64,000 nucleotides of DNA from a virus, in IMG/VR virus record IMGVR_UViG_3300004369_000002, positions 1 through 64,000 of that record. The stretch is one strand, 5' to 3'. Of the stretch, positions 1,179 to 21,641 are shown one piece after another (within the stretch, counting starts at the first letter, position 1; each line of letters begins with the position of its first letter). The translations under genes were made by a program, and so were the position numbers. The notes under the pieces are model-generated. The model saw only the letters and a program-made list of their open reading frames with translations, was not told the DNA's origin and ran no database searches.

Positions 1179-2483
1179 TCAGGAGGGGGCTCCGTCGAAG
1201 GTGACAGCGACGAAGGCCTCCGGACGCTTGACAGCAAGTGCGAGACGCTGCTCGGCGAGGATCACGATAGCGTTGCGCACGAAGAAGTCTGCGTGCTGCT
1301 CGCTGATGCGGATCGAAGCCTGCTCACGGTCGTACAACTGAGCGCCGGTACCGAACGCACCGACGAGAGCGGTGCCCTCGGCGATAGCGGGGGTATCGAC
1401 AACCGGGATGCGCCACAAGCGGGGTTCGCCACCGAGTGCCACGGAGACAGCGACCAGGTACTGGCCGTTGGCGTCCTTGGTCAGTTCGATGTCTTCCCAG
1501 TCGTTCGGGTGGAGAACCACACCGGTCGGCTCGTAGTAAGCCAGGAACGACAGGGTAGCCGCACGACGGATCGCGTCAGCCTTGGTGTCCGGAACCGGAA
1601 GGGTTGCACCAGCCGACCACGAGTAGGTCTGAATACCCGAGGTCTGCAGCACGCCTTCCAGATTCTCACCAGCGCCGTCACCATTGAGGATCTGCTCATC
1701 CTCCTGGAGACGGAGGCCATACATCAGTTCGTTGTCGATGATGGAGCGCAACTGCGGCTCATCAGCGAGAACGTTCCGGTGGGCGGCTTCCCAGTGAGCC
1801 AAGGTGCGAACCGGAGCCTGAGCACCAGCGAAGGTGAAGCCCGACTGCGGCTTGAGGCCGAAGGCGGATCCCGAACGCTCAGCGACAGACGACGCGTTGT
1901 TGGTGAAACCGGTCATCTTGAAGTACTCAATCACCGCAGCGGTGGTGGTACGAACCGGGAACAGGTCACGAACGCGACGGGTACGCATCGGCGGAACCAC
2001 GATCGGGTCACGCTGGATGCTTCCGAAAGCGCCGGGGGTGCCGGTGGGCAGGGCCGAGTAGACGTCCTTCTTGCCGTAAGCCGTCACGTCCTGAGCGTTC
2101 AGGACGAAGGGGCTGGGCATGTTGGCACCGTTACGGCCACCGTCCAGGGCCTTGAACTCTGCCGAGTCCAGGAACACCTCTCCAAGCGAGCGACCGCGGC
2201 TGGGGGCGTAGCCCGCAACTTCGGCAGCCGACTTGGCGGCGACGCTTTCACCCTCGGCGCGCGAGCCCCAAGAGTCGACATCACGCATGGCCTCAAGACC
2301 CTCAATGAGGCCCTTGATTTCCTTGATGTCTGACATGTTCTTGTCGAAGGCGGTCTTCTGGTCGGCAGAAACCTGCACGACTCCGTCTTCAATCTTGAAT
2401 GAATCGGCGATGGCCTTGTTGTCGGCCATCTTGCCTCGTAGCGCACCCTGGAGTTCGCGGAGGCGTCCTTCGTCGAATGACAT
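1179..2483 (-). CDS. Major capsid protein, HK97 fold, with N-terminal delta/scaffold domain
   Basis: Coiled N-terminus; RRVRDLFPV, KPQS, L.DEPQLRSIIDNEL, QILNGDGAGENLEG, LHPNDW, LWRIPVV, FVRNAIVILAEQRLALAVKRPEAF; AGGAG SD. Confidence 0.95.
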   Translation of the reverse strand: MSFDEGRLRELQGALRGKMADNKAIADSFKIEDGVVQVSADQKTAFDKNMSDIKEIKGLIEGLEAMRDVDSWGSRAEGESVAAKSAAEVAGYAPSRGRSLGEVFLDSAEFKALDGGRNGANMPSPFVLNAQDVTAYGKKDVYSALPTGTPGAFGSIQRDPIVVPPMRTRRVRDLFPVRTTTAAVIEYFKMTGFTNNASSVAERSGSAFGLKPQSGFTFAGAQAPVRTLAHWEAAHRNVLADEPQLRSIIDNELMYGLRLQEDEQILNGDGAGENLEGVLQTSGIQTYSWSAGATLPVPDTKADAIRRAATLSFLAYYEPTGVVLHPNDWEDIELTKDANGQYLVAVSVALGGEPRLWRIPVVDTPAIAEGTALVGAFGTGAQLYDREQASIRISEQHADFFVRNAIVILAEQRLALAVKRPEAFVAVTFDGAPS

Positions 2484-2650: not shown

Positions 2651-5143
2651 TTATGGATGGAATTCCTCACAAGTGGTTTCCGTAAACGAAGGCATTCCCT
2701 TGAGGTACGAAAGCGCCTTCGACGGCTTGATTGCCGCCATAATCTTTTTCCAGTCAGTTGAATCGTCGGACTTCTTTTTGGACATCTCTTCAAGAAGCCT
2801 CGTCATAGCGATGCTCCTGCCTCTAGTGACGTTCTGATAATCCTTCAGAATGTATTCCACAGCAAATTCTTCGGCGACAGCCTCTCGTGGGCTAACACCC
2901 GCATAACGGCTGATTCGTTTGCTATCGGCGGGCAGCGAATTGTATGTACCGGAAGGCAACCCGTCTCTAAGAGTGCGATTCCTGACGGCATTAATATTGT
3001 CTTTCTCCAACTCTTGGTTGAGTGCAGAAAATAAAGCAAGACCTGCTTTCTGTCTGAGTATGGCAGGGTCCTCATTCGGAGACTTGCTAAAAAGGTCGTC
3101 GTACATTTCCTTGTACTTTTTATCTATTTCACTATCTGGAATATCGTAATATGCCCTCACTTGAGTAAGAGCATCTGGTGACTCCAGTTCGGCAGTACGC
3201 ATTGACGAGTAATGCCAGGCGTGGCCAAACTCATGTGCCAATAGATAAGACGCGTAAAGTTCATCAAGGTCGTCATTATTTAGATCGTCACTTTCACGCT
3301 TCACAATGTAAGTCAACCCTGTTGTATTCGCGCCCTGTTTGGCTTCCCGCCGAACCGAACTCCTGTTCTTTAAAAGAACATCTTTAATAGACCCGTTCAC
3401 CCAAAGTTCCTGCCTCCACTCAAGCAGGTTTTCGTCTTCCCATTTGTCAACTTCGTAGTCAAAAAAATGACTTGCATCAGCATTCCTGATGTTTTGGAAC
3501 TTTTGTTTTTCAGGTGTCCCAGGACGAGCATCACCAATTGCTCTCAAATTCTTTGCAGTTTCAGGATGAGAAATGGACATATCAAGAAGAGTGTGTACCA
3601 CCCCTCGTTGCCCAGGAGTTAAATCGTCATCCAAAATAAACTTGATATCCGCATTAGGGAATGCCTTGCTGAGAGCCTGAGTTGCTTGTGACCGTGTTTT
3701 TACTTCACCAAATTCTTTGCTCAACCTTTCTGCACGATCAGAAAAAAGTTGTCTCACTCGCGACACTGACGGCACAGAATCAGGTTTCTCGGGTTTCGGA
3801 CCTTCAGATTGTGCAATCAACCTATTCATCTCAGCCGCAGACAACTTTGGCTTTTTCTTCTTTTTCCCGCCAGAACCAAAATCCCTAGCCAAAACTTCAT
3901 TTCGCAACTTCTTCGGCTTCTCCGCAGGCTTCTTAGGTTTCACGACACGCTGATGAATCGTCCCCTCCTGAACAATCCCATCACCATCGGCATCATCAGC
4001 ATTCGCATCAAAAGCAACCCGACTCAACGTCGGCTTCTTCCGACCAGCACCAACACGACGCCTAATCTTCTTGCCAATGCCTTTCTCCTCCCCACCAAAA
4101 GCACCAAACAAAAAACCATCAACGTCAGAACACCCGCAATCCTCACCAGACTTACGCCGACGAAGCCGACCCACCAAACGCCGCTCAGCACGCTCACGAT
4201 CCCGCCGAGCCTGAGGACCAACACCCATACGACGACGATAATCAGACATATTCGTACAAGGCATCCAAACAGTCGTACCATCGGCAGCCTGACGGCGACT
4301 GATACCTATACAACCCAACTGGCGAGAACGAAGACGCGCCGCATCAGGATTCAAGAAAACATCAGGATCTCCAACACGAGGCTTAGCCCGACCTGACAAA
4401 AACGACTTCTCCGACTGGCGAGCACGACGTCCAGCCTCACGTGCCCGTTCCGTATTCGCAACAAACTGTCTTCCTGTTCGGGAACCACGACGCTTCTTAC
4501 GATTAGTGGCCGCACGCTGAGCAGGTGTCAACTTCTCCCATGCTGAACGCGGAAGATACCGGTTCGTGCCACCTTCGCGTATAGCAGGCTTATCATCGGA
4601 TGTGGTCCAATCTTCCCTCGTCCACTTATCCAACGACCGCTGCGGCTTCTTCCGTCCACCCCTATATCCGCCGCCAGCACGACGATACTCCAAAGCCAAC
4701 AACTGTGCTTTCCGAGCAGACCACTGACCAGGCTTGCCACCACGAGAGCCAGCCATGATCCGTTTCTTGATACGTTCACGCAACTCGGGCTTCGTATAGT
4801 TAGCGGCCTTCAACTCCAATAGTTCATACGCTTCGAAATAATCATTCGAATCGGCTTTACCTGAAACAAGACCACCACCAGGCAACGAGTCAATCGAAAT
4901 CACTCCACGCTCACCCAACGGCTCATAGCCAGCAACATTTCGACCTACCCGACGACGCTTTTTCTTCTTGGGGTCATCGGTCTTTTTCTTTTTAGGTTCG
5001 GCACGATCCGAGATGCGCATGAGTTCCTCATGGGAGGAACAAGGCATGAGTTCACCATTGGGGCCCTTGTGCGTTCCCGAACACCCTAGATAGCGAGCCA
5101 TACGGGCTACCATCTCCGGGCGAGGTTCCTCTCGCTTAGCCAT
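2651..5143 (-). CDS. Head-region multidomain protein: two DUF3721-like motifs, DUF5872-like domain, C-terminal HEXXH zinc metallopeptidase
   Basis: LGCSGTH..MPC and LGCIG..WMPC; GGKPGQWSARKAQLLALEY..GGGY..WTREDW..RYLP; LAHEFGHAWH ... ISRYA...EAVAEEFA. Confidence 0.75.
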   Translation of the reverse strand: MAKREEPRPEMVARMARYLGCSGTHKGPNGELMPCSSHEELMRISDRAEPKKKKTDDPKKKKRRRVGRNVAGYEPLGERGVISIDSLPGGGLVSGKADSNDYFEAYELLELKAANYTKPELRERIKKRIMAGSRGGKPGQWSARKAQLLALEYRRAGGGYRGGRKKPQRSLDKWTREDWTTSDDKPAIREGGTNRYLPRSAWEKLTPAQRAATNRKKRRGSRTGRQFVANTERAREAGRRARQSEKSFLSGRAKPRVGDPDVFLNPDAARLRSRQLGCIGISRRQAADGTTVWMPCTNMSDYRRRMGVGPQARRDRERAERRLVGRLRRRKSGEDCGCSDVDGFLFGAFGGEEKGIGKKIRRRVGAGRKKPTLSRVAFDANADDADGDGIVQEGTIHQRVVKPKKPAEKPKKLRNEVLARDFGSGGKKKKKPKLSAAEMNRLIAQSEGPKPEKPDSVPSVSRVRQLFSDRAERLSKEFGEVKTRSQATQALSKAFPNADIKFILDDDLTPGQRGVVHTLLDMSISHPETAKNLRAIGDARPGTPEKQKFQNIRNADASHFFDYEVDKWEDENLLEWRQELWVNGSIKDVLLKNRSSVRREAKQGANTTGLTYIVKRESDDLNNDDLDELYASYLLAHEFGHAWHYSSMRTAELESPDALTQVRAYYDIPDSEIDKKYKEMYDDLFSKSPNEDPAILRQKAGLALFSALNQELEKDNINAVRNRTLRDGLPSGTYNSLPADSKRISRYAGVSPREAVAEEFAVEYILKDYQNVTRGRSIAMTRLLEEMSKKKSDDSTDWKKIMAAIKPSKALSYLKGMPSFTETTCEEFHP

Positions 5144-5433
5144 TAGTCATTTCTCCGGGCACGCTTCGGGTTAAGCATCTCATCGTTCAAAGCACCAAAA
5201 TCGCCTGGAATCACAAACTCGTCATAGTCGCGTTCAAGATTAGGCCAGTTCTCGGCAAGCGAATACTTATAGATCGCACTGTAGAAAGCATCGTCGTCCG
5301 GTTCATCAGCCAACGAGTAAGCAACACGAATGATTTTCCGGGCACGTTCCGGATTTGTAACACGAGCAAAGAACAACTCAATAATATTGTCTTTTTGTTT
5401 TTGAGTCAGAGCCTTAACTTTTTTACTTGCCAT
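5143..5433 (-). CDS. Hypothetical protein (~96 aa)
   Basis: Coupled to neighbours by overlaps; ATG 5433 (MASKK) preferred. Confidence 0.65.
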   Translation of the reverse strand: MASKKVKALTQKQKDNIIELFFARVTNPERARKIIRVAYSLADEPDDDAFYSAIYKYSLAENWPNLERDYDEFVIPGDFGALNDEMLNPKRARRND

Positions 5434-5743
5434 CGTTCTTCGCCTCGTGATCAACAACCCGAATTTTCTTTCCGTTTAACTGCATAAAAGCCTGCGCAAA
5501 CTCGTCATCACCTTCACCGGGGGCAAAAGTTTTTACGCTGGAACGCCCGTCACCAAACAGCATCCCGAAAGGATCATCAGTGGTTCGATGAGCGCTCCAC
5601 AGTTCCCCTGGGTCGGAGAAATATTCAAACCACGTATCGACCTCGGATTCATCACCAACAATCATTGTGGTTTTTCCGTCATATCTGAAAGCCCCAGTTG
5701 GCTCATCGGTATTAAGGTCCAAAAAAATGGCGTAACTGTTCAC
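5423..5743 (-). CDS. Small acidic protein homologous to the N-terminal domain of the 2454-aa protein ('domain X'; putative kinase partner)
   Basis: GTGA overlap with the giant gene stop; MN..DLNTDE..GA...DGK...I....S...W aligns with the giant protein N-terminus. Confidence 0.75.
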   Translation of the reverse strand: MNSYAIFLDLNTDEPTGAFRYDGKTTMIVGDESEVDTWFEYFSDPGELWSAHRTTDDPFGMLFGDGRSSVKTFAPGEGDDEFAQAFMQLNGKKIRVVDHEAKNDGK

Positions 5744-8700
5744 TGGGCACCTCGCGGAATGGAAAGTTTTCTCTTCAAATAATCTCTGTGCTCACTGGCA
5801 CGATCAACCTTAGTCTTCAGATGATCGTAAATTTCACCCAGTCGCTGCTCGCGGACACCCCGAACATCCGCACCGCCTACAGTGTCTGGGGCGCCGATCG
5901 ACATTCGACGAATGAACTCGTCACGTCCACCTGAAATAGCAGAACGATAACGGCTCACCATCTCATCGTAACGTTCCAACATTTCACGACGGAACCGAGT
6001 AGCCTCTGCCCGGCTTAATGACCGAACATGATCCTGCATCTCAGGGAATAGTCGCGAATCCATTGCGAACTTGTATGAGGACACAGGGGCATTCGCGCCC
6101 AGCCATTGGTATTGAGGAAGATTGCCGTAGAAACCAACTGCTACACGCCCCTGGTCGTAAGGAACAACAATCGCATTTCCGTTTTCATCAATGAATGTTC
6201 CACCATTCCTGTTATGACGGTCTGCTGAACCCAAGAAAAAGTTATGGAAGAAGTGTGCAGTTCTTGCAGGCAAGCCACGATCGGGAGCGTTGGCTAGTAA
6301 AGCCGGATCATAATCCGCCGCCCCCCGAGTCAACGGGCCATTCCCTGGGGCAAGGTTTGCTGCATGAGGAATCACCGCAAAAACCGCCTCCTCACCCTGA
6401 CCACGACCTCTCACACGCGGGTTCAACTGCGACGTACCAACATAGCCAGCACCCTCAGGCATAATTCCCACAGCAGCGGCGAGGTTATAACTGGCCACCT
6501 CGGCGTAAACGTCATCCATAATGCCTTGGCCGACTTGGTTGGGCCGAGAACCCTTGATTACGAGACCCTGGTTGGTTGGCCTACCGTCTGCATCTCGTAA
6601 CAAGAAAATACGAGTATCCGCTATGTTGCCGTCACGCGGAGGCTTCTCGTAGAACATTGAACCAGGATCAACCTCGGTTCGTGACGAGTTGGCTTGAATT
6701 GCCGAAATCCAATATTGATTTGGAACTTCGCTGAGGCTTCCGCCACTGCGCAAGAAATTGGCTGCCTGCTCGGAAGATTTGATAGAAGCATTCTCAATGA
6801 GACGTGGCTCGGGAAGGTCCCCGGGAGCAACTACAGGTGTAGCAATCTGTCCTCGGCGCTCATCCGGCGGTTGAGGACGAACAAACCCACGAAGCATGTG
6901 ACCGCCATGAACATCAACACCACGACGGTTCAATTGAACGTCAGCGGCATCAGTGGATTCATCAACAGCGTCAAATGAATGCTGGTCTAAGTACAAAGTT
7001 CCGCTACTCAACGGAGCGTTCGACCTCATCCATGCTTTAACTTTATTGATGCGAGCACGCCTGTCGTTGTCGGAACCACCATGCTCTAGAGCGTAGATAA
7101 GTTCCATACGGCTTGGTGAGGTACGACCATCATAATTTACTGCGTTTGCGCGACGAGCAAGTTCAGTGATCATTCGCGCCTGATCCTCAGTCGTAACAAT
7201 GCTGGAGCGTCCTGCACGGAACTTGAGGACTTCGTTGGCTGCTAGATTCCACAGTTCTCGCTGTGAATAACCATCACGGTATCCGACACGACCCCAGATA
7301 TAAGGACCATCAGATGCTGCACCAACTCCAACTCTGTCGAAACCGGCATCCTTCAACCAACCCCATGAATGCCCATTGAGGGCAGTGGCAACACCCATGC
7401 CTTTGAGGATGTGATGATCGTCAGGCATCGGGGTGCCGTCACTATATTTCCATACGTTCCCATCGCGCGTTACGCGTCGACCAGTGATCATGTCAATATC
7501 GCTTGTTGATGCAGTCTGGTAACTGTCGTGGCCCACAGAGAAAACAGAACTGGAAATCTTTCCATCGCTGCCGATCATGCGCGTAAAGGCGCCGACATTG
7601 TTTGACACCTCGGTTCCATCAGCCATTTTTGCAACAAGTCTTCCGTAAATGCTAATGGTGCCTCTGCTGAACTGAACATCGCTGACGACAGAACGCACGG
7701 ATGTTCCTTGTGGTCCTTCTACTTCTATTTCGTAAAGATTCTTCACCCACTCTTTAATTTTGCGTTTTTCCTCGGGTGTTCCGTTCGCCAATTTGTCAGC
7801 CATGGTCGCTGCAGTCAATGGATGTTCACCGCCATTGCGACGCTTATAGTTATCCCACGGATTACCCGTATCATTCGGATACTTCTTGCGGAAAACGGCA
7901 GTGAGCGACCGACGACGCTTCTTCTGTGCATTTTCAAGAATGCCGTCAATCATGGCAGCGGCTTCACTGTCAGTACTAATTAGATCCTGAACACCGTTAA
8001 CCACACCATTGGGCTCATTCACAACTCGCTGAGCACCAAGACCGGGATCAGGAGCCTGAGGAATACCCCACGCAGCCTGAATTGCGCGCTTACGATTCTC
8101 CAACTGCTGCCGTGTCAGCGAAGTGCGCGTCATCGACAACGCAACATATTGACCCAAATACTTTTGAAGCACATCATCTGATTGCACCCACCTACCGGCA
8201 GCAGCAATAGCACCACGGTCCAACAAATTATCAATGTCAGCCAGGCGTCGTTCATCTGCAGCCCTATCGACACCAATAGGTGCCTGATAAATATCGCGCG
8301 CACGATCAGCAACCTGACTGGCATGACCTTGAGCCAAAAGAAGTTGACGGGTCAGTTCATTGGGCGTTTCCTCAAAAAGACCCTGATCGCGTTCCCGAAG
8401 ATCTCTCTCTGACTTATACCTCTGACCCAAAGCACGCAAGAAGTTGCGCCCATCACCATCACCCTCAAGCCCCACACGCGCAGCATCAACCATCGCCTGA
8501 TACGACGCCACCCACGAATCAACATCAGACTTCAACTCATCGATACGCCCTTCAATTGTCTGAGGCATATCACCAGGAACTGTCCGGTTATACAACAACT
8601 CGCGATTTCGCCTGATATTTTCGGCATGACGTTTCATCGAAGAAGCAGCAACCGCCATACGGTTAGCGTCGTCGCGACCCATCCCTATACGACGACGCAA

Positions 8701-11700
8701 ATTATCATCCATCTCACCGCTACTGATAGATGCCATGGCAAGATACCGAATTGTTTCGGCGCGCCTGTCCGCATCCATCCCGTCCCAGCCGCCGCCCTTC
8801 CAACCGAGAATTCCCGAGAAATCCCCAGGACCGAGCGATCCACCGTTGTCTAGCCATTCCTGATTAACAAAAGAGACGACCTCATCCAAAGCACTATCTT
8901 CACGTCCTGCACCGTCGCCAATAATCGCGTTGATTCCGGCAGGGATTGCGTAGCGCTGACGGAAAAAATCCTCCCGATAATCATCGAACATCGGATGGAA
9001 AATACCTTCGTCGTATATTTCTCCACGAAGATTGATTTTTGTTTGGTCTATATCTCGGAATAGTGGCGTCGCTCCGGGAGCCATAGCGTTACGAGCCCGA
9101 TGGAGTTCCCGATAGGCTTCCTCTAGATCTGCAATTTCAGAGTTGCGCAATACGACGCGTCCATCCCAATTCGCTTCTAGACGTGCCCGAATTTGAGCCA
9201 TTTGACCCGTAATGCGTCGCTCTTCGTCTAGCAGTTCTTGAATCTCGTTTGGAGTGTCCGGTCCGGCCCCACCGTTCTGTAGACGATCGACAATGTCTTT
9301 AACTCGTCTTGCTACTGTGCCATCTCGGGCGGCTTGAATGTCGCTTTGTGCAATAGCAGGGACGTCGCCATCTGGCGCGTCAGCCGCCCGAGCCGCAGGA
9401 GCAGCATCGGGAACCGGCGGAGCAGACAGTTCACGTTCCTGCTGCTCTACTTCTGCGAGGGAAATAACCTGCTCAACCTCACGATCCTCAAGCGGACGAC
9501 CCTCAGCCTCACGGCGTTCACGTAGTTTCCGGTTTACGTAGCGTCCACGCTCGTTCAGATCGCCGTTTTCGTCGTAGTAACGATTGAATCGACGGTCGTA
9601 TTCGCGTTCACGAGTCTCGCTATAGTTCCGTCGATTACGGTCACGCCAAGTGGGCCTTGCTGGCAAACCACGCTGCCGGAACGCATTCCAAACATTACGG
9701 AAAGACCGTTCATCAGGTACGCTCCCAGAACCGAAGCCGGGCGAGTCAGGATCAGGGGCATCAACGATGCGTTCTAAGCCAGGATTCCAATCCGGATCAA
9801 CGCGCTGCAAAGATGACATCGCCAGGCGACGTGCATACGCAATGTCCTTGCGTCGTTGACGAATCTCATCGGCTTCATCAGTGAAACCGCCATCACGTAA
9901 ACGCTGTTCAAGAGCCTGCAAAGCATTCTCTCGGTCTTGATACATGTTGAAGGCTCGCTCTAGGGCATCCCTGTTGTTTCCTTCACGCCAGGAACGAACC
10001 TGCTCACCGAAATCGTCTGGCGGAGCAGGGTTATCGGCAAGAGCACGATCAACCTCTTGGCGACGACGACCAGCAGTATCGGGAGTATTCCGATTACGTC
10101 CGTTACGTCCGCCATTCTGACGTATGTTGAATTCTCCTCCAACAAGCCTGAACGCTGGATGGACATCCCTTCGCCCATCCGGACGCTCCAACTCCTCAAA
10201 GATGTCCATATTGCGGTCAACAATGTCTTGCAGACGCGCAACTTCATCATCACGAAGTTCGACCATATTGAAAGGATCGTCTTGGTCATACCGGTATCGC
10301 TGCAGACGATCACGAATCTCATCATCCGACAAGTTGTCAAGTTGACCAGGACGACGATCAGCGACATCAGGTGCATCCGCATCCCCAGGCGAACCAGCCC
10401 CATCAGGAGTCCTCGTACGATCAAAAGAACGGTTCGCTTGCTCTTCAAGCCGATCACGTTCATCCGCATCCAACGGACGGCGGGCCGCCTGCCGCTGATC
10501 CCGCAAATCGTTATTGATGTAACTGCCACGCTCGTTCAGGTTCCCATCGCGATCGTAATACCGTCCAAAACGCTCATCCATTTCGCGTTGCTTATCGCGA
10601 TCCCAGCCAGGACGATTACGGTCACGCCAATAAGCACGCTGAGGCAGACCACGATCAGGGAAACGATTACGCACATTACGCAAAGAACGCTCATCAGGAA
10701 CACTGTCTTCCCTGGGCGGTGAATCAGAACCAATTCCACGACGGTTACGTTCATCATTGATCCGCTCAACAGCAGGATGCGGCACACGGTTACGTTCACG
10801 CAATGGTTGGCGAGGACCATTGTTGGCATTAACAATCCGATTCAGACGTTCCAAATCGTCGTCAGACAGATTCTCCAAATCGTATGGGAAATCATCGCCA
10901 CGAATGAAGTTAGATAGATCATTCAAAATGTCGTCATCGCTACGGTCACCAAGACCAGCAGCAGGACGAGCCTCAGGCGCACGCTCCGCGTCAGGAACTG
11001 GAGCAGCAGCCTCTTCACGCTGTCTACGCCGGTCACGACGACGACGCTCAGCCTTCAGCCGACCAAGATTTCGACGACGTTCCTCAACAAACATGTCGAA
11101 AGTATCTGGATTCGCATTGAACTCGTCTTCTTCTAACTGAACAATCTCTTGAATTGTTTCCAACTCGTTATCGTCCAGATCCTTCAGATTCTCTGGGATG
11201 CCACGCTCTTCACGCCACTGACGATTAGCCTCCTTGCGCCACTGAGAACGATCGTCAGAATCGGGAACAACACGTTCCGCAGCACCACGAGCACGACCAT
11301 TTACATCCGTGCGATCACGACCCCGTTCCGTGCCGCGACGGCGACGCTTCGGCTTCCCCTCCTCCTGAAGCACACGTGCAGCCGCATCATCCAAAGCACG
11401 AGCAATCTGGCGGCGACGTTCATTACGACGTTCACGACGACGCTCACGGCTTTCCCCGCGACGCTCACGGAACTCACCCAGACGCTGAATAGCCTGAGCG
11501 AAGAAATCCATGATCTTCTGCATCAAAGAACGCTGCTCTTCGGATTCTTCACCCCGAGCGGAACCACGACGCTCACGACGAGGACGACGCTCACCGTCTC
11601 CTCCATCACCACGACGGCGATCACGAATTAGATCAGCAAGAACCTGAGCCCACGGACCCAATGCTTCCTTGACACGCTCACGCTCATCAGGATCCTCAAT

Positions 11701-13104
11701 AAAATCAAAAGGATCGTCACTATCCGAAGGACGATCAGCATCAGCGTCGGGAGTCGGTCGACGTTCACCTTGGGGGCGACGAGGACGGACAGGACGCTGC
11801 TCGCTAGGACGCCGACCAGGACGACGACCAGGAGCACGACCGGCTTCCGGAGCATCGGCATCGCCTGCGTCTCCTTCATCGGCTGGGCGATCCCTACCTT
11901 CTCCACGACGAAATGCTTGCTCAGCACGAATCGCCGCCTGGTTCGCTCGCTTGCGACGCTGCTCGGCTTCAGATTCTGGGTTGAAACCGATGCGCCCATC
12001 AGTGGGAGGCTTCTGCAACTCGTTACGGGCAAGTGCCTCTTCCAGTTCAGCGTCATCCATATCTGCCCAACGACGCCCAACTTCACCCCCAGGCAAAATT
12101 TCGTTAGCCGGACCATCGCGACGAACTAGGTTTCCATTTTCGTCAAACCGGTAAGCATTCAGAAGATCATCTTCCGAGCGTCGTTGATCTCGCCGCCCGC
12201 CAAGTCCAGGGACTCCTCGGGTGGGAAGGTCGCGCTGTGGGCGACGCTGAGACGGAGTGCGGTCACGACCCCCACCTCGCCCAGGTCGCGCCGGAGCAAA
12301 GTCTCCAACCAAGCGATCTGCCGCAGCATCCAAACGGTTCGCTACCGCACGACGGCCTTCACGGATGCGCTCACCACGCTCACGACGATTGACAGCAGCC
12401 TGCGTACGCCGAGCCAAACGACGAGCATCACGGCCAGCACCGACATCGTCCAGACGACGACCTGCACGCATCAACGCACGCCCAATACGACGAGTCAAGC
12501 CGCCACCACATCCACGACCAAAACGATCCGTAATCTGGCCGCCGTTCAACGTTCCGTCTGGACAACGCCATCCGCCTCCTGGACCGATGTTTGCGTCGAA
12601 CACAGCACGAACGCGCTTGACCTGAATGTTCAGGGCAGTGACTTTTTGTTCCGTGCGGAAACGGCGAGCCTTGAAGTTGAGAGCAGCCTGACGATCCTTC
12701 GCATCAATCTGATCAAGACGTGTTGAATACAGGTTGGTGCGTGTAACACCCTTCAGAGACTTCCGTCTGATACTTGTCCCCATGGTGGGATGGGTCTTGC
12801 CATCCTGAACGAACTGATCGCCGGGGATATATAGTTCAACTTTGCGGGCGAGTTCTTCGCCATACTGATCTTCGACGCTTTTAACGAAATGCCGATCGAT
12901 GTCAACGGATAGTTCTTGCTGCAAGTTGAGATCCAGCACTGCCTTGACTTCGTTGAAAGTGGCTTTAGAGTCATTGAGCCAAGCGGCCCATTCAACAGAC
13001 TTCAACGAATAGGGGATAGCGATCGCTGCCGATTTCCCGTCGTGGATTACTGCTCCGTAGAGTTCCTGAGTATTGATGTCCTTGATGACACTTGCTTTGT
13101 TCAT
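5740..13104 (-). CDS. Giant 2454-aa polyvalent protein: domain X, Cys motif, Arg/Asp-rich repeats, GNAT-like domain, C-terminal HipA/PI3K-like kinase
   Basis: LKGMGVATALN..GPYIWGRVGY (GNAT); LVIKG, YAEVASYNLA, FFLGSADRHNRN, VPYDQG (kinase); lies between prohead protease and capsid genes. Confidence 0.8.
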   Translation of the reverse strand: MNKASVIKDINTQELYGAVIHDGKSAAIAIPYSLKSVEWAAWLNDSKATFNEVKAVLDLNLQQELSVDIDRHFVKSVEDQYGEELARKVELYIPGDQFVQDGKTHPTMGTSIRRKSLKGVTRTNLYSTRLDQIDAKDRQAALNFKARRFRTEQKVTALNIQVKRVRAVFDANIGPGGGWRCPDGTLNGGQITDRFGRGCGGGLTRRIGRALMRAGRRLDDVGAGRDARRLARRTQAAVNRRERGERIREGRRAVANRLDAAADRLVGDFAPARPGRGGGRDRTPSQRRPQRDLPTRGVPGLGGRRDQRRSEDDLLNAYRFDENGNLVRRDGPANEILPGGEVGRRWADMDDAELEEALARNELQKPPTDGRIGFNPESEAEQRRKRANQAAIRAEQAFRRGEGRDRPADEGDAGDADAPEAGRAPGRRPGRRPSEQRPVRPRRPQGERRPTPDADADRPSDSDDPFDFIEDPDERERVKEALGPWAQVLADLIRDRRRGDGGDGERRPRRERRGSARGEESEEQRSLMQKIMDFFAQAIQRLGEFRERRGESRERRRERRNERRRQIARALDDAAARVLQEEGKPKRRRRGTERGRDRTDVNGRARGAAERVVPDSDDRSQWRKEANRQWREERGIPENLKDLDDNELETIQEIVQLEEDEFNANPDTFDMFVEERRRNLGRLKAERRRRDRRRQREEAAAPVPDAERAPEARPAAGLGDRSDDDILNDLSNFIRGDDFPYDLENLSDDDLERLNRIVNANNGPRQPLRERNRVPHPAVERINDERNRRGIGSDSPPREDSVPDERSLRNVRNRFPDRGLPQRAYWRDRNRPGWDRDKQREMDERFGRYYDRDGNLNERGSYINNDLRDQRQAARRPLDADERDRLEEQANRSFDRTRTPDGAGSPGDADAPDVADRRPGQLDNLSDDEIRDRLQRYRYDQDDPFNMVELRDDEVARLQDIVDRNMDIFEELERPDGRRDVHPAFRLVGGEFNIRQNGGRNGRNRNTPDTAGRRRQEVDRALADNPAPPDDFGEQVRSWREGNNRDALERAFNMYQDRENALQALEQRLRDGGFTDEADEIRQRRKDIAYARRLAMSSLQRVDPDWNPGLERIVDAPDPDSPGFGSGSVPDERSFRNVWNAFRQRGLPARPTWRDRNRRNYSETREREYDRRFNRYYDENGDLNERGRYVNRKLRERREAEGRPLEDREVEQVISLAEVEQQERELSAPPVPDAAPAARAADAPDGDVPAIAQSDIQAARDGTVARRVKDIVDRLQNGGAGPDTPNEIQELLDEERRITGQMAQIRARLEANWDGRVVLRNSEIADLEEAYRELHRARNAMAPGATPLFRDIDQTKINLRGEIYDEGIFHPMFDDYREDFFRQRYAIPAGINAIIGDGAGREDSALDEVVSFVNQEWLDNGGSLGPGDFSGILGWKGGGWDGMDADRRAETIRYLAMASISSGEMDDNLRRRIGMGRDDANRMAVAASSMKRHAENIRRNRELLYNRTVPGDMPQTIEGRIDELKSDVDSWVASYQAMVDAARVGLEGDGDGRNFLRALGQRYKSERDLRERDQGLFEETPNELTRQLLLAQGHASQVADRARDIYQAPIGVDRAADERRLADIDNLLDRGAIAAAGRWVQSDDVLQKYLGQYVALSMTRTSLTRQQLENRKRAIQAAWGIPQAPDPGLGAQRVVNEPNGVVNGVQDLISTDSEAAAMIDGILENAQKKRRRSLTAVFRKKYPNDTGNPWDNYKRRNGGEHPLTAATMADKLANGTPEEKRKIKEWVKNLYEIEVEGPQGTSVRSVVSDVQFSRGTISIYGRLVAKMADGTEVSNNVGAFTRMIGSDGKISSSVFSVGHDSYQTASTSDIDMITGRRVTRDGNVWKYSDGTPMPDDHHILKGMGVATALNGHSWGWLKDAGFDRVGVGAASDGPYIWGRVGYRDGYSQRELWNLAANEVLKFRAGRSSIVTTEDQARMITELARRANAVNYDGRTSPSRMELIYALEHGGSDNDRRARINKVKAWMRSNAPLSSGTLYLDQHSFDAVDESTDAADVQLNRRGVDVHGGHMLRGFVRPQPPDERRGQIATPVVAPGDLPEPRLIENASIKSSEQAANFLRSGGSLSEVPNQYWISAIQANSSRTEVDPGSMFYEKPPRDGNIADTRIFLLRDADGRPTNQGLVIKGSRPNQVGQGIMDDVYAEVASYNLAAAVGIMPEGAGYVGTSQLNPRVRGRGQGEEAVFAVIPHAANLAPGNGPLTRGAADYDPALLANAPDRGLPARTAHFFHNFFLGSADRHNRNGGTFIDENGNAIVVPYDQGRVAVGFYGNLPQYQWLGANAPVSSYKFAMDSRLFPEMQDHVRSLSRAEATRFRREMLERYDEMVSRYRSAISGGRDEFIRRMSIGAPDTVGGADVRGVREQRLGEIYDHLKTKVDRASEHRDYLKRKLSIPRGAQ

Positions 13105-15158
13105 GTTCCTGCGCCAATGATTTGAAGGATCAATTCACGAGACTCCCGAAGTGAAGTCAACCGTGTGTCAAAAATTTCTTTTACGATTGATAGGTGTGAC
13201 TCTTCCGCTGAAGATAGTTTACCGTCAATAGACAATTTCTCCAGGTAATCAGCCCACGAAAACTCTTCAGCACGCGAAATCAACTGGTCCAAAATTTGGA
13301 TCATCAACGCACGCTCATCCTCACCAATCTCAGCAAAAGTACGACCGTAAGCATCAGTGGTCTTACGGAAAAAGTCCTCCGGACCAATAGCCCGCCTGGC
13401 TTCCAACTCATCCGCGTCCAAACCCACCAAAGCGGCGAATGGCCCTACCCCAGCAACAAGTTCAGCCTCTTCACCAACAGTCGCAGTAAAAATCGAATTC
13501 TTCGAACGATCACGAGTATCCGTCAACCAGTCAGCCACCTGAACACCCAAAACCTGCTCCGGCGGCACAACCTCTGGGTCATAATCCTCCGTAATGCCAG
13601 CACCCTCAATCACATTGTCCGGAGACCTGTAATAGAACGGACGATCATCCCCCTCTCCAGCAAACCGAACCGACGGTGACTGAACCCCCAACTCACGCAA
13701 CATCTCCGAACTGTAATGCGCACTCAAATGCTCAAACGTCTCATTGTCCTCCTTGACAACAACACGCTTGCCATCCTCCGTCTCATACAACGTAATGTCA
13801 TCACGAAGTTTGGTGGCCTCATAAATCTCAGCCTGACCCAAAGCCTCCAACACAATCGCCGGATCAATCTCAGACAACAAACCGCCCTTATTGATGTGCT
13901 CAACAGCCTCCTTCACGGAGTCAATTCGCTCTTCAGGCTTCTTCGGAGCAACATTCTGAGGAGCAGCAGCAGGAGCAGCCTCGCCAGGCTCCGGCTCACC
14001 CTCCCCATCACTCAAATCAGCCTCTTCCTCAACCCGTGGAGTTATATCCTCACTAAACGCTTCCTTAGCCCACTTAGGCGTACCGTCATCGTCACCCTCA
14101 GGATCCTTGACGTCACCGTAATCCTTGGACATCTCAAAAGCGCCATCAGCGTTTTCCACGATGAAATCAAGCCGAGCCAAAGGATCCTTTGAAACATCCA
14201 TGTCGGCGGCAGTGTTCGCATCCTTACCAAGTTGACGACGCTCGCCGGTCGAAAGATCCCGCTTCCTATCCAAGCGAATCTGCACTCCGTTTGGAGTCAC
14301 ATAAACCAGTGAAGTGACACCAGTGTTCGACAAGAAGCGAAGTTCGTCCCCACCAAGATTCTCTGGCTTACGAACCGACTGAACGAAAGCGGCTTCTTCC
14401 ATGTTGCGGTTATCCGGAACCTCACGCAAATCTGCGGCAGACACAACAGGGACCATCACAAAACCGTCACGACGAACCAAAACACCAGAATCAGCGTCCT
14501 GATTAGTGATCGCTTCGACAGCCTGCTTGATTCCATCTTCCCGAGCCTCAACGCTCATGGGCCCAACTTCAGAGACACGCGCAGCACGACGAATCATCAA
14601 CTGGGGATTCTCATCGGCTGCTCCACCACCCAAAGCCTGAGCAGTTACAGTCGTGCCGGGAGCAACCGAACGCCGTCGGTCCCTAGTCCGATAAATCGCC
14701 TGACCGAGGGTTTCACGCAAAGACGGGATGTCGAACAACTGTTTCCCACAGGTCGAATAGTTCTCATCTGTGAAACGTCCACCAAACTGGAAACCTTCAG
14801 AACATCGATAGCCACGTTCGTCCGGACTGGGAAGATTAACCCCACGGCCCCCACCACCAGGCGTCAAAGCACGAGCAATACCAGACCGAATTGGACTACG
14901 GGCAGGGCTTACGTTCCCCGGAAGAATCATTGAACCAGCAGCCTGAGCAGCCTGCCCAGCACGCCCCCTAGACCCAACAACCCCGACAACCTTCTCTTGG
15001 ACCCTTTTCAGCGCGTTAGACCGATAAAGGCGAGCCTTGTATTCCACCAGATTCTGATCCCCATTAAGAGGCAAATAGAAAAGATCACGAGCAAAAGAAA
15101 GCGGAGTGCTCAAAGGAACTGACTTACGTTCCATACGCTCGCCGTCGTATTCGCTCAT
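13101..15158 (-). CDS. 685-aa paralog of the giant protein with a degenerate C-terminal kinase-like domain
   Basis: EYKARLYR; YRCSEGFQFGGRFTDENYSTC; IDSVKEAVEHINKGGLLSEI; VVVKE, EHLSAHYSSEMLRELG, DWLTDTRDRSKNS. Confidence 0.7.
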   Translation of the reverse strand: MSEYDGERMERKSVPLSTPLSFARDLFYLPLNGDQNLVEYKARLYRSNALKRVQEKVVGVVGSRGRAGQAAQAAGSMILPGNVSPARSPIRSGIARALTPGGGGRGVNLPSPDERGYRCSEGFQFGGRFTDENYSTCGKQLFDIPSLRETLGQAIYRTRDRRRSVAPGTTVTAQALGGGAADENPQLMIRRAARVSEVGPMSVEAREDGIKQAVEAITNQDADSGVLVRRDGFVMVPVVSAADLREVPDNRNMEEAAFVQSVRKPENLGGDELRFLSNTGVTSLVYVTPNGVQIRLDRKRDLSTGERRQLGKDANTAADMDVSKDPLARLDFIVENADGAFEMSKDYGDVKDPEGDDDGTPKWAKEAFSEDITPRVEEEADLSDGEGEPEPGEAAPAAAPQNVAPKKPEERIDSVKEAVEHINKGGLLSEIDPAIVLEALGQAEIYEATKLRDDITLYETEDGKRVVVKEDNETFEHLSAHYSSEMLRELGVQSPSVRFAGEGDDRPFYYRSPDNVIEGAGITEDYDPEVVPPEQVLGVQVADWLTDTRDRSKNSIFTATVGEEAELVAGVGPFAALVGLDADELEARRAIGPEDFFRKTTDAYGRTFAEIGEDERALMIQILDQLISRAEEFSWADYLEKLSIDGKLSSAEESHLSIVKEIFDTRLTSLRESRELILQIIGAGT

Positions 15159-17627: not shown

Positions 17628-19331
17628 TCATTGTGCTGTGTAGAAGTTCCGGACAGCATTTGTCAACGCCAGTTCAAGTTCGTCTCGCTGTGAAGTATTG
17701 AGGGCCTTTACTGTGATCCCGTTTTCGTGAACTTCTGCCTCAGCCTGATGATGCGACAACACTGGATCAATGAAAGAGCGAAGGTCGAATAGTTCCGACA
17801 TCTTGGCCTCAACCAAAATGGTGTCGTCCTGCTCCTTCATTTCGATTTCGGAGCGCCCGCCAGCAGCAATGATTTCCTGGAGGATTTCCATGGCCCGCTG
17901 GAGTTTCTCCAGATTGCCTGCACTGATGACGCGTCCGGCCTTGAATTCAACATCCTCGGCGTCAAGGGCTGCAAACATTTCGTCAAGGTTGGCGTAGACG
18001 TCCTTGCGCAAAGATTTGCCACACGAACATCCAGTCTTGCCATACTCCTCATCGTCGTCATCCTCATAATCGGATGGCTTAGGAATACGACGCTCCTCAC
18101 CTTCGTCATCGCCCTCGTACTCGTTGCCGTAACCAGCCTCTTCGTCGCCGTCCTCCATCTCCATGTAGACGGTACGGGCTACAACTTGTACAGGATCTCC
18201 GAACATGAACTGGCCATCTTCATAGTGGTAGCCAACCCTCATCGTCATCGGCTTTCCATCGTGCAGATGATCGAAGATGACCTGATTTTTCGACACTTGG
18301 CGCATACGAACCGGCCCGCCGAATCGTTTCCCAATCTCGGCGACTAGCGAACGCATCATGTTCATCGCGGGGGACATTGGCATCATCCCCCACCCGCCTT
18401 TTTCTTGAGCCGTTTCGTCGACCTCGGGAAGAGTCTCGTCGGCCTTTTTCTTCATATCCGACTTCTTCATAGCCTCCCGGACCACATTCTTCATGAAGTC
18501 CTCGCCCCTGCTCCCCACTGCCAGCCACTTGATCTGTGCGATCACGCCGGGAAGCCGGAAGTCTTGAGCGTGGCGGGCCACCCATGCTTCGCGCAGTTCT
18601 AGAGCGTTTACCTGGTCGGGAGTGTCCGCCAGTCCGCCGCTTTCCGCGATCTTCGTGAGGATCGCGTATTGGGCGTTCCCCTTGATATTTCCGCCTTTGG
18701 CCCAAATCTCTGGATATTCCTCTTTTATGCGAGCCGCGAATTCACGGTCGAACATCTTCCATTTGCTCTTACCAAAGGAGTCAACTTTCTGCTCGCCTGT
18801 TTCACTCTTAATCGAAATAGTACCAGTTAACTGATTAGCCCCATGAAGAACAGGGCTAACTTCGTAAAGTTCTACTTCACGTAGCAGATTTGCTTGACGG
18901 TTATTGTCATAAATGGCGTCCAAAGTCTTGTAGCCAATGCTCCATTCCTGCTCTTCACCATAGAAAGCAACATTGGCAAATGCCTCTCGCCCCTTCTCGG
19001 ACTTGAGGTTGAACTGGACTCGGGCAAAAAGGCCACCGATACCAGCAGCCTTCATTTTGCCGGGCAGACGCGGATCGCTCGCCGGAACTTCGTAGATCTC
19101 CAGAACCTTGCCGATTGGATGATTCCAGTCGTGACCCCACACGACACGAGGCTTGCGACGCTTGAGACTTTCAGTAAATGCGCCGGGCAGAACAATGTCA
19201 CCCACGGAGTCCTTATTGCCAACACCAGAAACAAAACACTCAACGATGCCTTTTGCCTCGTCAACGTTAATTTGCCCGCTGATTGCCTTGAACTCTACCG
19301 AGCCCGACTGACCTGAAATAGTGGATGGCAT
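17628..19331 (-). CDS. HK97-family prohead protease (S78) with long C-terminal extension
   Basis: DSVGDIVLPGAF, VWGHDWNHPIG (His), EWSIGY (Ser), LYEVSPVLHGAN. Confidence 0.93.
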   Translation of the reverse strand: MPSTISGQSGSVEFKAISGQINVDEAKGIVECFVSGVGNKDSVGDIVLPGAFTESLKRRKPRVVWGHDWNHPIGKVLEIYEVPASDPRLPGKMKAAGIGGLFARVQFNLKSEKGREAFANVAFYGEEQEWSIGYKTLDAIYDNNRQANLLREVELYEVSPVLHGANQLTGTISIKSETGEQKVDSFGKSKWKMFDREFAARIKEEYPEIWAKGGNIKGNAQYAILTKIAESGGLADTPDQVNALELREAWVARHAQDFRLPGVIAQIKWLAVGSRGEDFMKNVVREAMKKSDMKKKADETLPEVDETAQEKGGWGMMPMSPAMNMMRSLVAEIGKRFGGPVRMRQVSKNQVIFDHLHDGKPMTMRVGYHYEDGQFMFGDPVQVVARTVYMEMEDGDEEAGYGNEYEGDDEGEERRIPKPSDYEDDDDEEYGKTGCSCGKSLRKDVYANLDEMFAALDAEDVEFKAGRVISAGNLEKLQRAMEILQEIIAAGGRSEIEMKEQDDTILVEAKMSELFDLRSFIDPVLSHHQAEAEVHENGITVKALNTSQRDELELALTNAVRNFYTAQ

Positions 19332-19421: not shown

Positions 19422-21641
19422 TCAGAAATCGAAACCCAAACGGCAACGACAGTTAATGGTCAAGCCGGGAGGAGCCAACGGATCGCCAGGGAACCGCAAC
19501 AAGGCACCCTCAACAGCAAACCCATCACCGATATCAACACTCTTTCCGTCCAAGAATCGGTGAGATTCACGCACACGAGCATCCTTGCGTGTCAACCACT
19601 TTTTCCTCGGAATACCGGCAGCGACACTACCCAGATAAGTGCCAGCATTGAAAGCAGACTGAGACTCATGCTCAGCGATAGTCCGCTTTCGCTTCGCCAA
19701 CAAGTTCGCAAAAATGGCAATCAAAGCGGCACGCAACATGCTTGCTTTATCGTCGTCGGAACCAGACAAAGCCATCACAACCAGAAGAGCGGCCGCCAAC
19801 TCTTCCTTGGTTGTTTCATTGGCCTGCTGAGCGCGAGCAACCTGAGCCTCCAAAACCTCTTCTAGTTCCTTCTCGGCGATAGTTCCCGTTTCGCCAATGT
19901 CTTCAGAAACAAGATTGGCTGCATCCAACAAAATGGCCTTGAACAACGGGCGAAGGTCATCGTCCATTTGCCGGTTCCACACGTCAACATCAAAAATGGC
20001 GTCCACCGACAGCAAATTCTCGCGAATCGCCTTCCGGCTCTTGGCACCCAACGCCTTCTCCAGGATCACTCGCTGCTGACGTTCGAACAGCCGATCCAAA
20101 GAGGCATCAACAATTTCGGTCCATCGGTCGGCAGTATCTTCAGCCTTCTTGTCCCAAACGGTCAGAGCCTGATTCAAAACCTTGGTCTCAATACCAGAAC
20201 GCGGTTCGCTGAGTTGCCCTTCAGGAATGGGTTCGATCGCTGCCTCCACAGGCTGACCTTCAGCGGGTTGCCCTTCCATCTCAGGCATTGCACCTGGCTG
20301 AGGCGCACCCCCTGCGGGCTGTCCTTCCATGCCAGGCATTGCTCCACCTGCACTGCCATCCGGAACAGCGCCCGCCTGAGCGATCGGCATTTGATCTTCA
20401 ATACTGAAAGGCTTTTCCGTATTGGCAATCGGAACCAAATTCGGGTTTGACAGCAACTGGTCAGCGATTTCGGACTCAACGTTTTTACGTCCAGTTCCTT
20501 CACGATACTCGTTCGCGCTGATCAGTCCGTTCCCAAACTCTTCCATCAAATATCGTTCACGTTCCTGCTTAGACAGGATGAGAATCGGAACGTCCTTGGT
20601 GTCAAAATCGACGTAGTACTTGTCGTCAAGTTCGTCCAAAGCACGGGCCAAAGGCTCCAGATGGGGAAGCATGGTTTCCATCCAGAAAACACGCAATTCT
20701 TCGGCAGCATTGGAGAAAGTTCTTCCTGAGGCATTTCCGATCACGGATTCAGGAACACCAAAAGCAGCAAGAATCTCTTCTTTGGTGATTTGACGCATTT
20801 CGACGTACGCTGCGTCACGAGGATTGGAAGCGGTGTCAATGAAATCGGCACCTTCTTCGGAACTGATTACAGAAACAGATCCCGTCCTGCTGAGATTTCC
20901 ACGGAATCGACTACGCAGTTCGTCAGCGTCGTCCGGGTCCAATTCTCCGCGAACGACAAGTAGTCCTCCAGGGCGACCGTCGTTCAACAAGAAGTTTCGA
21001 TTGTAGAGACGAGAAAGGTTTTCGATTTCGATGGCAATGCCAGCGGACTCCATTGGAGTCAAAGACAAGTAAGGATCAAGTGGGTGAGGTCGACGTACCC
21101 ACACAACTTTCTCCGGGGGAAGAACATACTTTTGGCCAGTGGGCAGATCGACCTGATATCCCGAGACGAAGCGCTTAGGGTCGGGAAGGGGCGCAGTGAA
21201 CTGCGGAGGGAGCAAGTTCAACGCAATGACACTTCCATCACGTCCAGTGACTTTTTCAATGAATACTCCACGGGTCGACATCAAAAGTTGGCTAGACAGT
21301 CGATAGCGGAACACGAAGGAGTTTTCCCCTTCGTTTGACTTGGTGTTGAGCAAGTCCAGGACACGATGCTTCTTGTTGACGACTTCCCCGTTGGGGTTGT
21401 TGTCCTTGCGGAGTATGACGGGGAGTCGGGCTTGGTTTCCGGCGATGGCGTCGATACAGCGGGAAACCCATACGACCTTTTGCAAACCTTCTCGGTATGC
21501 GCGTTCGATATCCCAGGAATCACGGTATGGCTTTCCGGCCATTGCCGGGTGAAGGGCGACGGGTGCGCCCGGACCAAGTGTTCCTGCTTTTTGCTGGCTA
21601 TTGCCACCCAGGTTCTTGGTCTGCCGAGAGTTCCATGCCAT
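19422..21641 (-). CDS. Portal protein fused to C-terminal MuF-like minor head domain
   Basis: CIDAIA, L.P..SA, F.NDGRPGGLL, EILAAFGVP...G, TFSNA, GLISANEYR; then KKWLTRKDARVRESH..LDG...FPGDP...INCRC. Confidence 0.92.
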   Translation of the reverse strand: MAWNSRQTKNLGGNSQQKAGTLGPGAPVALHPAMAGKPYRDSWDIERAYREGLQKVVWVSRCIDAIAGNQARLPVILRKDNNPNGEVVNKKHRVLDLLNTKSNEGENSFVFRYRLSSQLLMSTRGVFIEKVTGRDGSVIALNLLPPQFTAPLPDPKRFVSGYQVDLPTGQKYVLPPEKVVWVRRPHPLDPYLSLTPMESAGIAIEIENLSRLYNRNFLLNDGRPGGLLVVRGELDPDDADELRSRFRGNLSRTGSVSVISSEEGADFIDTASNPRDAAYVEMRQITKEEILAAFGVPESVIGNASGRTFSNAAEELRVFWMETMLPHLEPLARALDELDDKYYVDFDTKDVPILILSKQERERYLMEEFGNGLISANEYREGTGRKNVESEIADQLLSNPNLVPIANTEKPFSIEDQMPIAQAGAVPDGSAGGAMPGMEGQPAGGAPQPGAMPEMEGQPAEGQPVEAAIEPIPEGQLSEPRSGIETKVLNQALTVWDKKAEDTADRWTEIVDASLDRLFERQQRVILEKALGAKSRKAIRENLLSVDAIFDVDVWNRQMDDDLRPLFKAILLDAANLVSEDIGETGTIAEKELEEVLEAQVARAQQANETTKEELAAALLVVMALSGSDDDKASMLRAALIAIFANLLAKRKRTIAEHESQSAFNAGTYLGSVAAGIPRKKWLTRKDARVRESHRFLDGKSVDIGDGFAVEGALLRFPGDPLAPPGLTINCRCRLGFDF

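Follow-up and report, generated by a model that had tools for sequence, protein, structure and literature searches.

Paralogous genes ending in kinase folds in the head operon of an uncultured marine myovirus: candidates for capsid-borne cargo

The stretch of DNA analyzed here, called the window, comprises the first 64,000 nucleotides of one contig of 104,839 bp (IMG/VR record IMGVR_UViG_3300004369_000002; 51.5% GC, one tRNA). The source genome is that of an uncultured marine myovirus of ~105 kb. We focused on three consecutive genes of its head operon, named A, G, and X, whose products have 685, 2454, and 106 amino acids (aa), respectively. Profile comparisons of a co-linear front module, consisting of a KA motif and a two-Cys motif, and of a C-terminal kinase fold identify A and G as paralogues. 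Because of their position between the protease and capsid genes, the conserved front module on otherwise unrelated bodies, and the terminal enzyme domain, we favor, with somewhat better than even confidence, the reading that A and G are effectors of the polyvalent or polymorphic type that travel as cargo in the capsid and are probably injected.

Paralogy of A and G and their shared unit

A first-pass annotation of the window had delimited the open reading frames of A, G, and X, and had read them as a kinase effector cassette present twice, with a partner domain following each kinase. These frames were confirmed. The features of the three genes are listed below, with positions in the window.

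13101..15158, minus strand: gene A (P0001, 685 aa), with front module, middle alpha/beta domain, and C-terminal pseudokinase
15021..15044, minus strand: KA motif of A, EYKARLYR, residues 39-46, co-linear with the KA motif of G (extended hhalign)
14745..14810, minus strand: two-Cys motif of A, YRCSEGFQFGGRFTDENYSTCG, residues 117-138, with invariant residues in the family alignment and an hhalign match to G
14043..14561, minus strand: middle alpha/beta domain of A, ~residues 200-372
13104..13937, minus strand: pseudokinase domain of A, residues 408-685, including the leading helix IDSVKEAVEHINKGGLLSEI (412-431), by VIA fold match and hhalign to the G kinase
5740..13104, minus strand: gene G (P0002, 2454 aa), with conserved front module, polymorphic middle, and C-terminal kinase
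12910..13104, minus strand: N-terminal domain of G ("X1"), ~residues 1-65
12655..12678, minus strand: KA motif of G, NFKARRFR, residues 143-150, by hhalign with A
12505..12570, minus strand: two-Cys motif of G, WRCPDGTLNGGQITDRFGRGCG, residues 179-200, by BLASTP and hhalign against A
9355..12504, minus strand: Arg/Asp/Glu-rich, poorly hydrophobic region of G with internal repeats, ~residues 201-1250, by composition
6985..7971, minus strand: domain M of G, upstream of the kinase, ~residues 1712-2040
5743..6837, minus strand: kinase domain of G, residues 2090-2454, with K2184, E2202, D2295-R-H-x-x-N2300, and D2317 (YDQG)
5423..5743, minus strand: gene X (P0003, 106 aa), a small acidic protein with a resemblance to the N-terminus of G over its first ~45-65 aa

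The paralogy of A and G was visible at three places along the proteins. The Cys motif of the A family aligned with that of G-type front ends in hhalign at a probability of 95% (expect value, E, 3.4e-8; 25 columns). Plain BLASTP of A against G found the Cys motif alone, at E 0.008, and left the helix motif below significance. The KA motifs (residues 39-46 of A and 143-150 of G) were co-linear with high per-column confidence in a permissive hhalign run, although they are too short for a test on their own. The leading helix and the kinase-like domain aligned over 267 columns (probability 97.4%, E 1.2e-11; P0002 ~2104-2453 against P0001 408-683), starting at the helix "I.S...A...h..GG.LSEh". These hhalign results bear out the four ordered landmarks that the first-pass annotation had claimed to be common to A and G. 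Its duplicated unit of motif, variable middle, and kinase fold is likewise upheld, by the profile paralogy and by the wide recurrence described below.

Many phage contigs share the front ~250 aa of G, in which the N-terminal domain is followed by the KA and Cys motifs. The front module retrieved all 34 giant homologues, 32 of which carry the strict Cys motif, and the remainder of each protein differs. The rest of G is swapped between relatives; the giants of two related loci (L005_G and L006_G) match the G of the window over the first ~270 aa only. A conserved N-terminal part joined to a variable C-terminal enzyme, as expected of polymorphic toxins, was therefore found in G and its relatives. 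Across relatives, the gene at the G position ranges from 236 aa to >3300 aa. The N-terminal domain of G-type genes (~50-65 aa) is present even in versions of ~240 aa, and is kept at the start of the gene following A in nearly all related loci.

Behind the front module, the Arg/Asp/Glu-rich region of G contains 15-30% R and ~20-25% D+E per 100 aa. Within it, a 79-aa repeat rich in Arg and aromatic residues occurs at residues 801-879 and 1128-1206 (59% identical, E 1e-29; window 10468-10704 and 9487-9723, minus strand). Domain M is conserved in eight other kinase-bearing giants, and neither Pfam, which was also run on five sibling giants, nor the sequences of the Protein Data Bank (PDB) gave a match to it. 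For G ~1800-2035 there is a weak GNAT lead, namely one Atlas cluster in which 20% of members have Acetyltransf_1, together with a GxGxA-like stretch in domain M.

The A family comprises >228 full-length metagenomic homologues (640-720 aa), in which no Pfam domain was recognized. In 30 of 30 diverse members, RCxEGxQxGGRxTDxxxxxCG is invariant (R118, C119, E121, G122, Q124, G126, G127, R128, T130, D131, C137, and G138). The AlphaFold2 (AF2) model of A had a predicted local distance difference test (pLDDT) score of 70, and its middle alpha/beta domain reached 77-90. This domain had no Pfam match in 30 members, and many of its residues are invariant in the 30-member alignment, e.g., RRDGF, PDNRNME, LSNTG, and GERRxLG. 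BFVD matches to "minor capsid" proteins hinted that it might be MuF-like, and we rejected this candidate, as Pfam gave no support for it in the 30 members. The proposal of the first-pass annotation that the system is a non-MuF one agrees with our scans: no MuF was found in A (30 members scanned) or in G, and the MuF of this phage is fused to the portal.

The kinase of G also recurs widely. The last 365 residues of G retrieved 91 relatives from 1.84 billion cluster representatives; in nearly all of them, the domain forms the end of a long protein, and some proteins of the family have two tandem kinases. In 51 of the 91 representatives, the strict Cys motif lies upstream of a mostly C-terminal kinase. 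Some phages carry two or three such genes in a row between the protease and capsid genes.

On the minus strand of the window, the gene order is portal-MuF, prohead protease, further genes, A, G, X, further genes, and major capsid protein, so that the placement of the cassette genes inside the head operon, between prohead protease and major capsid protein, is confirmed. Synteny is kept in ~60 IMG/VR loci, in the order of a ~210 aa gene, A, G, a small gene, a 600-1100 aa gene, and the capsid protein gene. Read directly, the junctions between A and G and between G and X are ...ACATGAAC (ATGA) and ...CAGTGAAC (GTGA). The stop/start overlaps pointed out earlier are thus present. Since the 4-nt (-4) overlap is the commonest A/G junction among the ~60 related loci, we regard it as ordinary operon coupling, and it carries no special meaning.

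Kinase folds and the small downstream gene

The AF2 model of the G kinase domain had a pLDDT of 87 and a predicted template-modeling score (pTM) of 0.89. The best VIA match of this model was CotH (5jd9; Z 13.6, root-mean-square deviation 4.1, 253 residues), followed by PI4K-II (Z 12.8), CtkA (11.2), HipA (~11), and HipT (10.6). As the match to HipA was confined to HipA residues 116-437, the G kinase is without the N-subdomain that HipS supplies in HipBST systems. No helix-turn-helix or HipB family was recognized among the neighbor proteins in general Pfam and PHROG scans.

At the sequence level, the profile of the kinase family matched the PI4K/PI3K catalytic loop and DFG region ("DRHxGN...IDFG") in PDB sequences at E 0.002-0.01. 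The threshold of PF00454 (PI3_PI4_kinase) was not reached, with no Pfam match for P0002 or its kinase domain even at E 10; one sibling giant (P0238) carries a precomputed PF00454 match. Among relatives of the G kinase, the catalytic D, R, N, and D are invariant in 16 of 16, the Lys is present in 12 of 13, and the Glu in 13 of 13. G itself retains the ATP-binding Lys, the helix-C Glu, the DRHxxN catalytic loop, and the metal-binding Asp. Because all of these residues are kept, sequence alone predicts that the G kinase is probably an active phosphotransferase.

VIA comparison of A residues 432-685 returned CtkA (Z 13.7), CotH (13.6), and HipA (13.0). Structure prediction thus gave an atypical kinase fold for both C-termini that had been called kinase-like from the sequence. 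In the A family (n = 30), however, the beta3 Lys is found in 12 members and the catalytic Asp550 in 14, the position of the catalytic Asn is Ser/Asn555, and the DxG position is never Asp (Asn in 16, Gly in 12). A 408-685 therefore has the kinase fold without the conserved catalytic residues of an active kinase. A variant kinase in L005_G and L006_G (DRTPGN...IDHGN) shows how the "DRTPGS" loop of A aligns. Since the catalytic residues are lost and yet the full length is strongly conserved, A is, judged by its residues, a conserved pseudokinase with a probable structural or adaptor role. The earlier view that both copies are effectors does not hold for the 685-aa copy.

The BFVD kinase-fold matches of the A model included proteins annotated as PI3K/PI4K catalytic domain in the haloarchaeal tailed viruses HSTV-2 and HHTV-1, and also large ADP-ribosyltransferase proteins of mycobacteriophages. 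From such models, the kinase fold of the A/G type may be spread widely in tailed viruses.

X had been described as a ~100-aa domain homologous to the N-terminus of G. The similarity itself found weak support, and it spans ~45-65 aa, not ~100. BLASTP aligned 28 aa at 39% identity (E 2e-5). With hhalign, the X group matched G N-termini at a probability of 39-72% and a score of 24.9-28.4, against a mean of 9.5 (standard deviation 2.0, maximum 17.1) for 150 column shuffles. Hidden Markov model (HMM) searches between X and the N-terminus of G were not significant in either direction. The C-terminal half of X (GEGxxEF...) has no counterpart in G. X belongs to a narrow clade, with four near homologues among 5.8 billion proteins, together with the small genes of two related loci (L010_S and L016_S) at ~30% identity; the search of the ESM Atlas with X gave no match. 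Across six X sequences, which go down to 29-33% identity, the frame is open and 17 positions are invariant. By these comparisons, X is most aptly viewed as a G-type N-terminal domain with a gene of its own.

The small gene always lies downstream of the giant and co-varies with its C-terminal half. In the window, L010, and L016, the gene before X ends in a DRH-type kinase. In L005 and L006, the giant has another C-terminal half, and the two small genes show homology to one another (E 7.5e-7) and not to X. In distant clades, the giants lack a kinase, and the small gene behind them comes from yet another family. In other lineages, each kinase-ending gene is followed by a gene of 99-126 aa. Hence the expected tie between X and kinases was seen in the window, L010, and L016, while elsewhere other small-gene families take this place, also after giants that have no kinase. 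The co-variation of the small gene with the C-terminal half of G nevertheless leaves room for a partner role. Co-fold prediction of the G kinase domain with X scored 0.06 against a mark of 0.32, a result that weighs neither way.

Two readings of the small genes were rejected. A single family after G in all loci was discarded because its HMM was dominated by the distant-clade family "YPPFS...ARLYQKRY", and the X of the window was matched through the seed only. The small genes after kinases in L083-L087 resemble X by eye, but their hhalign score of 9.3 stood against shuffles with a mean of 10.5 and a maximum of 16, so they are not taken as homologues.

In one related phage group, the same type of domain occurs both alone and fused. 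L084 and L085 have a 97-aa stand-alone gene (L084:10116-10409), and in L086 a longer Cys-motif protein (L086:10660-11816) begins with a stretch of 89% identity to it. The stand-alone gene occupies the slot directly before a DUF3721-type gene and the capsid gene. Because a related phage pair has this domain type fused or stand-alone, X may be a split-off cassette head.

Proposed capsid-borne cargo and competing explanations

In the mechanism we propose, the paralogues A and G, as part of the head-morphogenesis operon of a lytic myovirus, would encode cargo. The front module, a KA helix and a two-Cys knuckle, would direct both proteins into the procapsid; the Cys motif as loading tag is a guess. 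A would act as a constant adaptor comparable to DarA/Hdf of phage P1, and G as variable cargo comparable to P1 DarB, T4 Alt, and phage polyvalent proteins. G would then leave the head with the DNA and phosphorylate host proteins early in infection. X, as a separately encoded copy of the G-type N-terminal domain, would be a small partner that was retained or, alternatively, the head of a third cassette that was truncated.

Several observations weigh against this proposal. A and G are known here as genes, from which their packaging and ejection are predicted. Neither A, the front module, nor the kinase had a match in 50,697 cultured phage records, and A, G, and X matched no Pfam or PHROG family in scans of the window proteins. 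Sequence searches of the PDB likewise returned nothing for them. The region of the two-Cys motif, which would be the tag, has low pLDDT in the model of A. Finally, the closest folds include the spore-coat assembly kinase CotH and lipid kinases, which would allow an assembly role or a non-protein substrate.

The model nearest to the first-pass annotation pairs an effector with its cognate inhibitor, in which the C-terminal kinase is toxic and X, acting as immunity proteins or HipS/HipB do, would bind it and silence it within the capsid or the cell that makes it. We consider it unlikely. Its layout is that of polymorphic toxins, with a conserved front, a variable C-terminal enzyme, and a small gene directly downstream, and the G kinase lacks the very part of HipA that HipS supplies. 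The co-variation of the small gene with the C-terminal half of the giant (X in the window, L010, and L016; another gene in L005 and L006) would fit an inhibitor, but is equally explained by linkage in one swapped DNA block. The 99-126 aa genes found after each kinase-ending gene of other lineages would fit it too; these have no detectable homology to X, and behind kinase-less giants there is also a small gene, of another family. X, moreover, resembles the N-terminus of the next cassette type, with a fused counterpart in a related phage pair, and no known inhibitor; and a lytic phage has no kin to protect. An assembly role, which we rank next and regard as improbable, would make A and G an internal scaffold or core, with the kinase phosphorylating phage proteins, possibly the Arg-rich region of G itself, as CotH does spore-coat proteins, and without action in the next host. 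Scaffold and core genes do lie between the genes for protease and capsid protein, the conservation of A is that of a structural gene, and G offers a ~1000-aa region rich in Arg, Asp, and Glu. CotH is the top structural match of the G kinase, but CotH, PI4KII, CtkA, and HipA fall within ~3 Z units, so the fold does not single out CotH. Nor would a core component be expected to range from 236 to >3300 aa and to swap its whole body among close relatives.

More doubtful still is that X is the functionless leftover head of a truncated third cassette. The 97-aa gene of L084/L085, so close in sequence to the start of the L086 Cys-motif protein and in the same slot before the DUF3721-type and capsid genes, speaks for such a remnant, and some phages do have three cassettes. 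The open frame and the invariant positions of X suggest selection instead, and its C-terminal half would have to be explained without a counterpart in G. The least probable of the ideas considered here takes the kinase folds as docking modules: the A pseudokinase would bind the N-terminus of G, and the G kinase would bind X, giving an ordered head-to-tail chain that loads variable cargo into the procapsid and silences the active kinase until ejection. If true, it would be a new capsid-loading principle built on a pseudokinase adaptor.

Capsid-borne cargo, the reading we favor, has precedents, and variable enzymatic cargo encoded in the head module is a known principle. According to published work, effectors can be packaged in phage heads, and the genes of polyvalent proteins lie close to those for portal and terminase (PMC5512222). 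Like A and G, the polyvalent proteins of Iyer, Burroughs, Anand, de Souza, and Aravind (2017, PMC5512222) are giant proteins beside portal and head genes that were proposed to be packaged and injected; like G, they are modular with swappable domains, and some have kinase domains proposed to modify host proteins. The kinase of polyvalent proteins, however, is of a different clade, namely a Ser/Thr/Tyr-kinase clade without the C-terminal subdomain (PMC5512222), whereas that of G has a complete PI3/4K-CotH-HipA-like fold. Polyvalent proteins also hold two or more effector domains per polypeptide, while G shares the virion gene context and has the kinase as its sole verified enzymatic domain. A conserved pseudokinase paralogue and a front module of KA and two-Cys motifs lie outside the description of polyvalent proteins (PMC5512222).

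The polymorphic toxins that temperate phages carry with a MuF domain (Jamet et al. 2017, PMC5576092) likewise resemble G in being encoded in the head or packaging module, in their conserved N-terminal part and variable C-terminal enzymes, and in the delivery by phage proposed for them. Unlike these toxins (PMC5576092), A and G are without a MuF domain, which in this phage is on the portal, and the lineage looks lytic, with a single match among 185,579 prokaryote genomes. In phage P1, DarA and Hdf form pairs along the inside of the capsid, and heads emptied of DNA no longer contain them (PMC12810830). P1, also a myovirus, combines small or medium conserved head-internal proteins (DarA/Hdf) with a giant enzymatic cargo, the 2255-aa DarB, that leaves with the DNA, similar to the roles proposed for A and G (PMC12810830). 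The likeness is one of proposed role, and the enzymes differ, Dar having a methyltransferase-helicase and G a kinase. The Dar genes are not known to lie between the protease and capsid genes as A and G do. T4 Alt and the internal proteins IPI-III carry a capsid-targeting sequence of ~10-19 aa, which is cleaved by gp21 and loads diverse cargo into the prohead. The T4 tag is thus short and cleaved, as against ~90-250 aa for the shared module of A and G, and the likeness lies in the idea of a shared N-terminal loading tag.

As for the enzyme itself, HipA/HipT, CtkA, CotH, and type II PI4-kinases share the bilobal fold of the A and G domains (Z 10.6-13.7) and the catalytic layout of G, i.e., Lys, Glu, a DxHxxN-type loop, and a metal-binding Asp. 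G differs from these kinases in its sequence identity to them of 8-14%, the missing HipA N-subdomain, the lack of a recognized HipB-like neighbor, and the fusion to a phage protein of >2000 aa.

If present in the virion, these proteins would represent an undescribed and widespread family of phage-delivered kinases (>200 phage contigs; 91 kinase clusters at 50% identity) for which Pfam and PHROG have no entry. A PI3/4K-CotH-HipA-like enzyme would then add phosphorylation to the injected activities, among which are ADP-ribosylation, methylation, and RNA polymerase. The constant pseudokinase partner and the recognizable front module could be used for finding capsid cargo in metagenomes, and the system would offer a simple test bed for cargo selection in packaging.

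Distribution and genomic setting

Among 185,579 prokaryote genomes, there was a single match, L082 (JASLZV010000019.1), a 12-kb contig with the same A and G genes. This contig is probably phage DNA, and a prophage origin was rejected, as this lone match looks like phage DNA. Its binning into a Phycisphaerae metagenome-assembled genome of eastern tropical North Pacific origin hints at a marine host. Judged by the capsid protein, the nearest cultured relatives are Gordonia phages (49% identity), which encode an ADP-ribosyltransferase toxin and an RNA ligase between the portal and capsid genes and thus offer a further precedent for the cargo reading.

Some related loci have further cassette genes. 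In the third cassette protein of L015 (L015:18337-21869), the Cys motif is at residue 64 and there are two kinase domains in tandem, and the same double-kinase layout was seen in a set of database proteins beginning "MxTDCxTC". L017-L080 have a second giant gene of 1700-2900 aa upstream of A (e.g., L027:121-8733); their downstream giants are without a kinase and are followed by the "YPPFS...ARLYQKRY" family of small proteins.

The window also holds myovirus genes for the large terminase (21911-23215), tail sheath (35051-36499), and tape measure (37773-41489), along with baseplate-like genes. The neighbors of A, G, and X in the head operon are as follows.

19422-21641, minus strand: portal fused to MuF (PF04233 at portal residues 649-735), by Pfam
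17628-19331, minus strand: S78-type prohead protease, by Pfam and PHROG scans
between the protease and A, minus strand: genes of 493 aa, ~100 aa, and 262 aa
between X and the 830-aa gene, minus strand: a 104-aa gene
2651-5143, minus strand: 830-aa gene directly upstream of the capsid gene, with DUF3721 (E 1.4e-7), a weak DUF5872 match, and a C-terminal HEFGH (HExxH)
1179-2483, minus strand: major capsid protein (phrog_10, E 8e-67)

The C-terminal HEFGH of the 830-aa gene looks like a zincin peptidase, and N-termini homologous to its protein precede the capsid gene in L013, L083, and L084.

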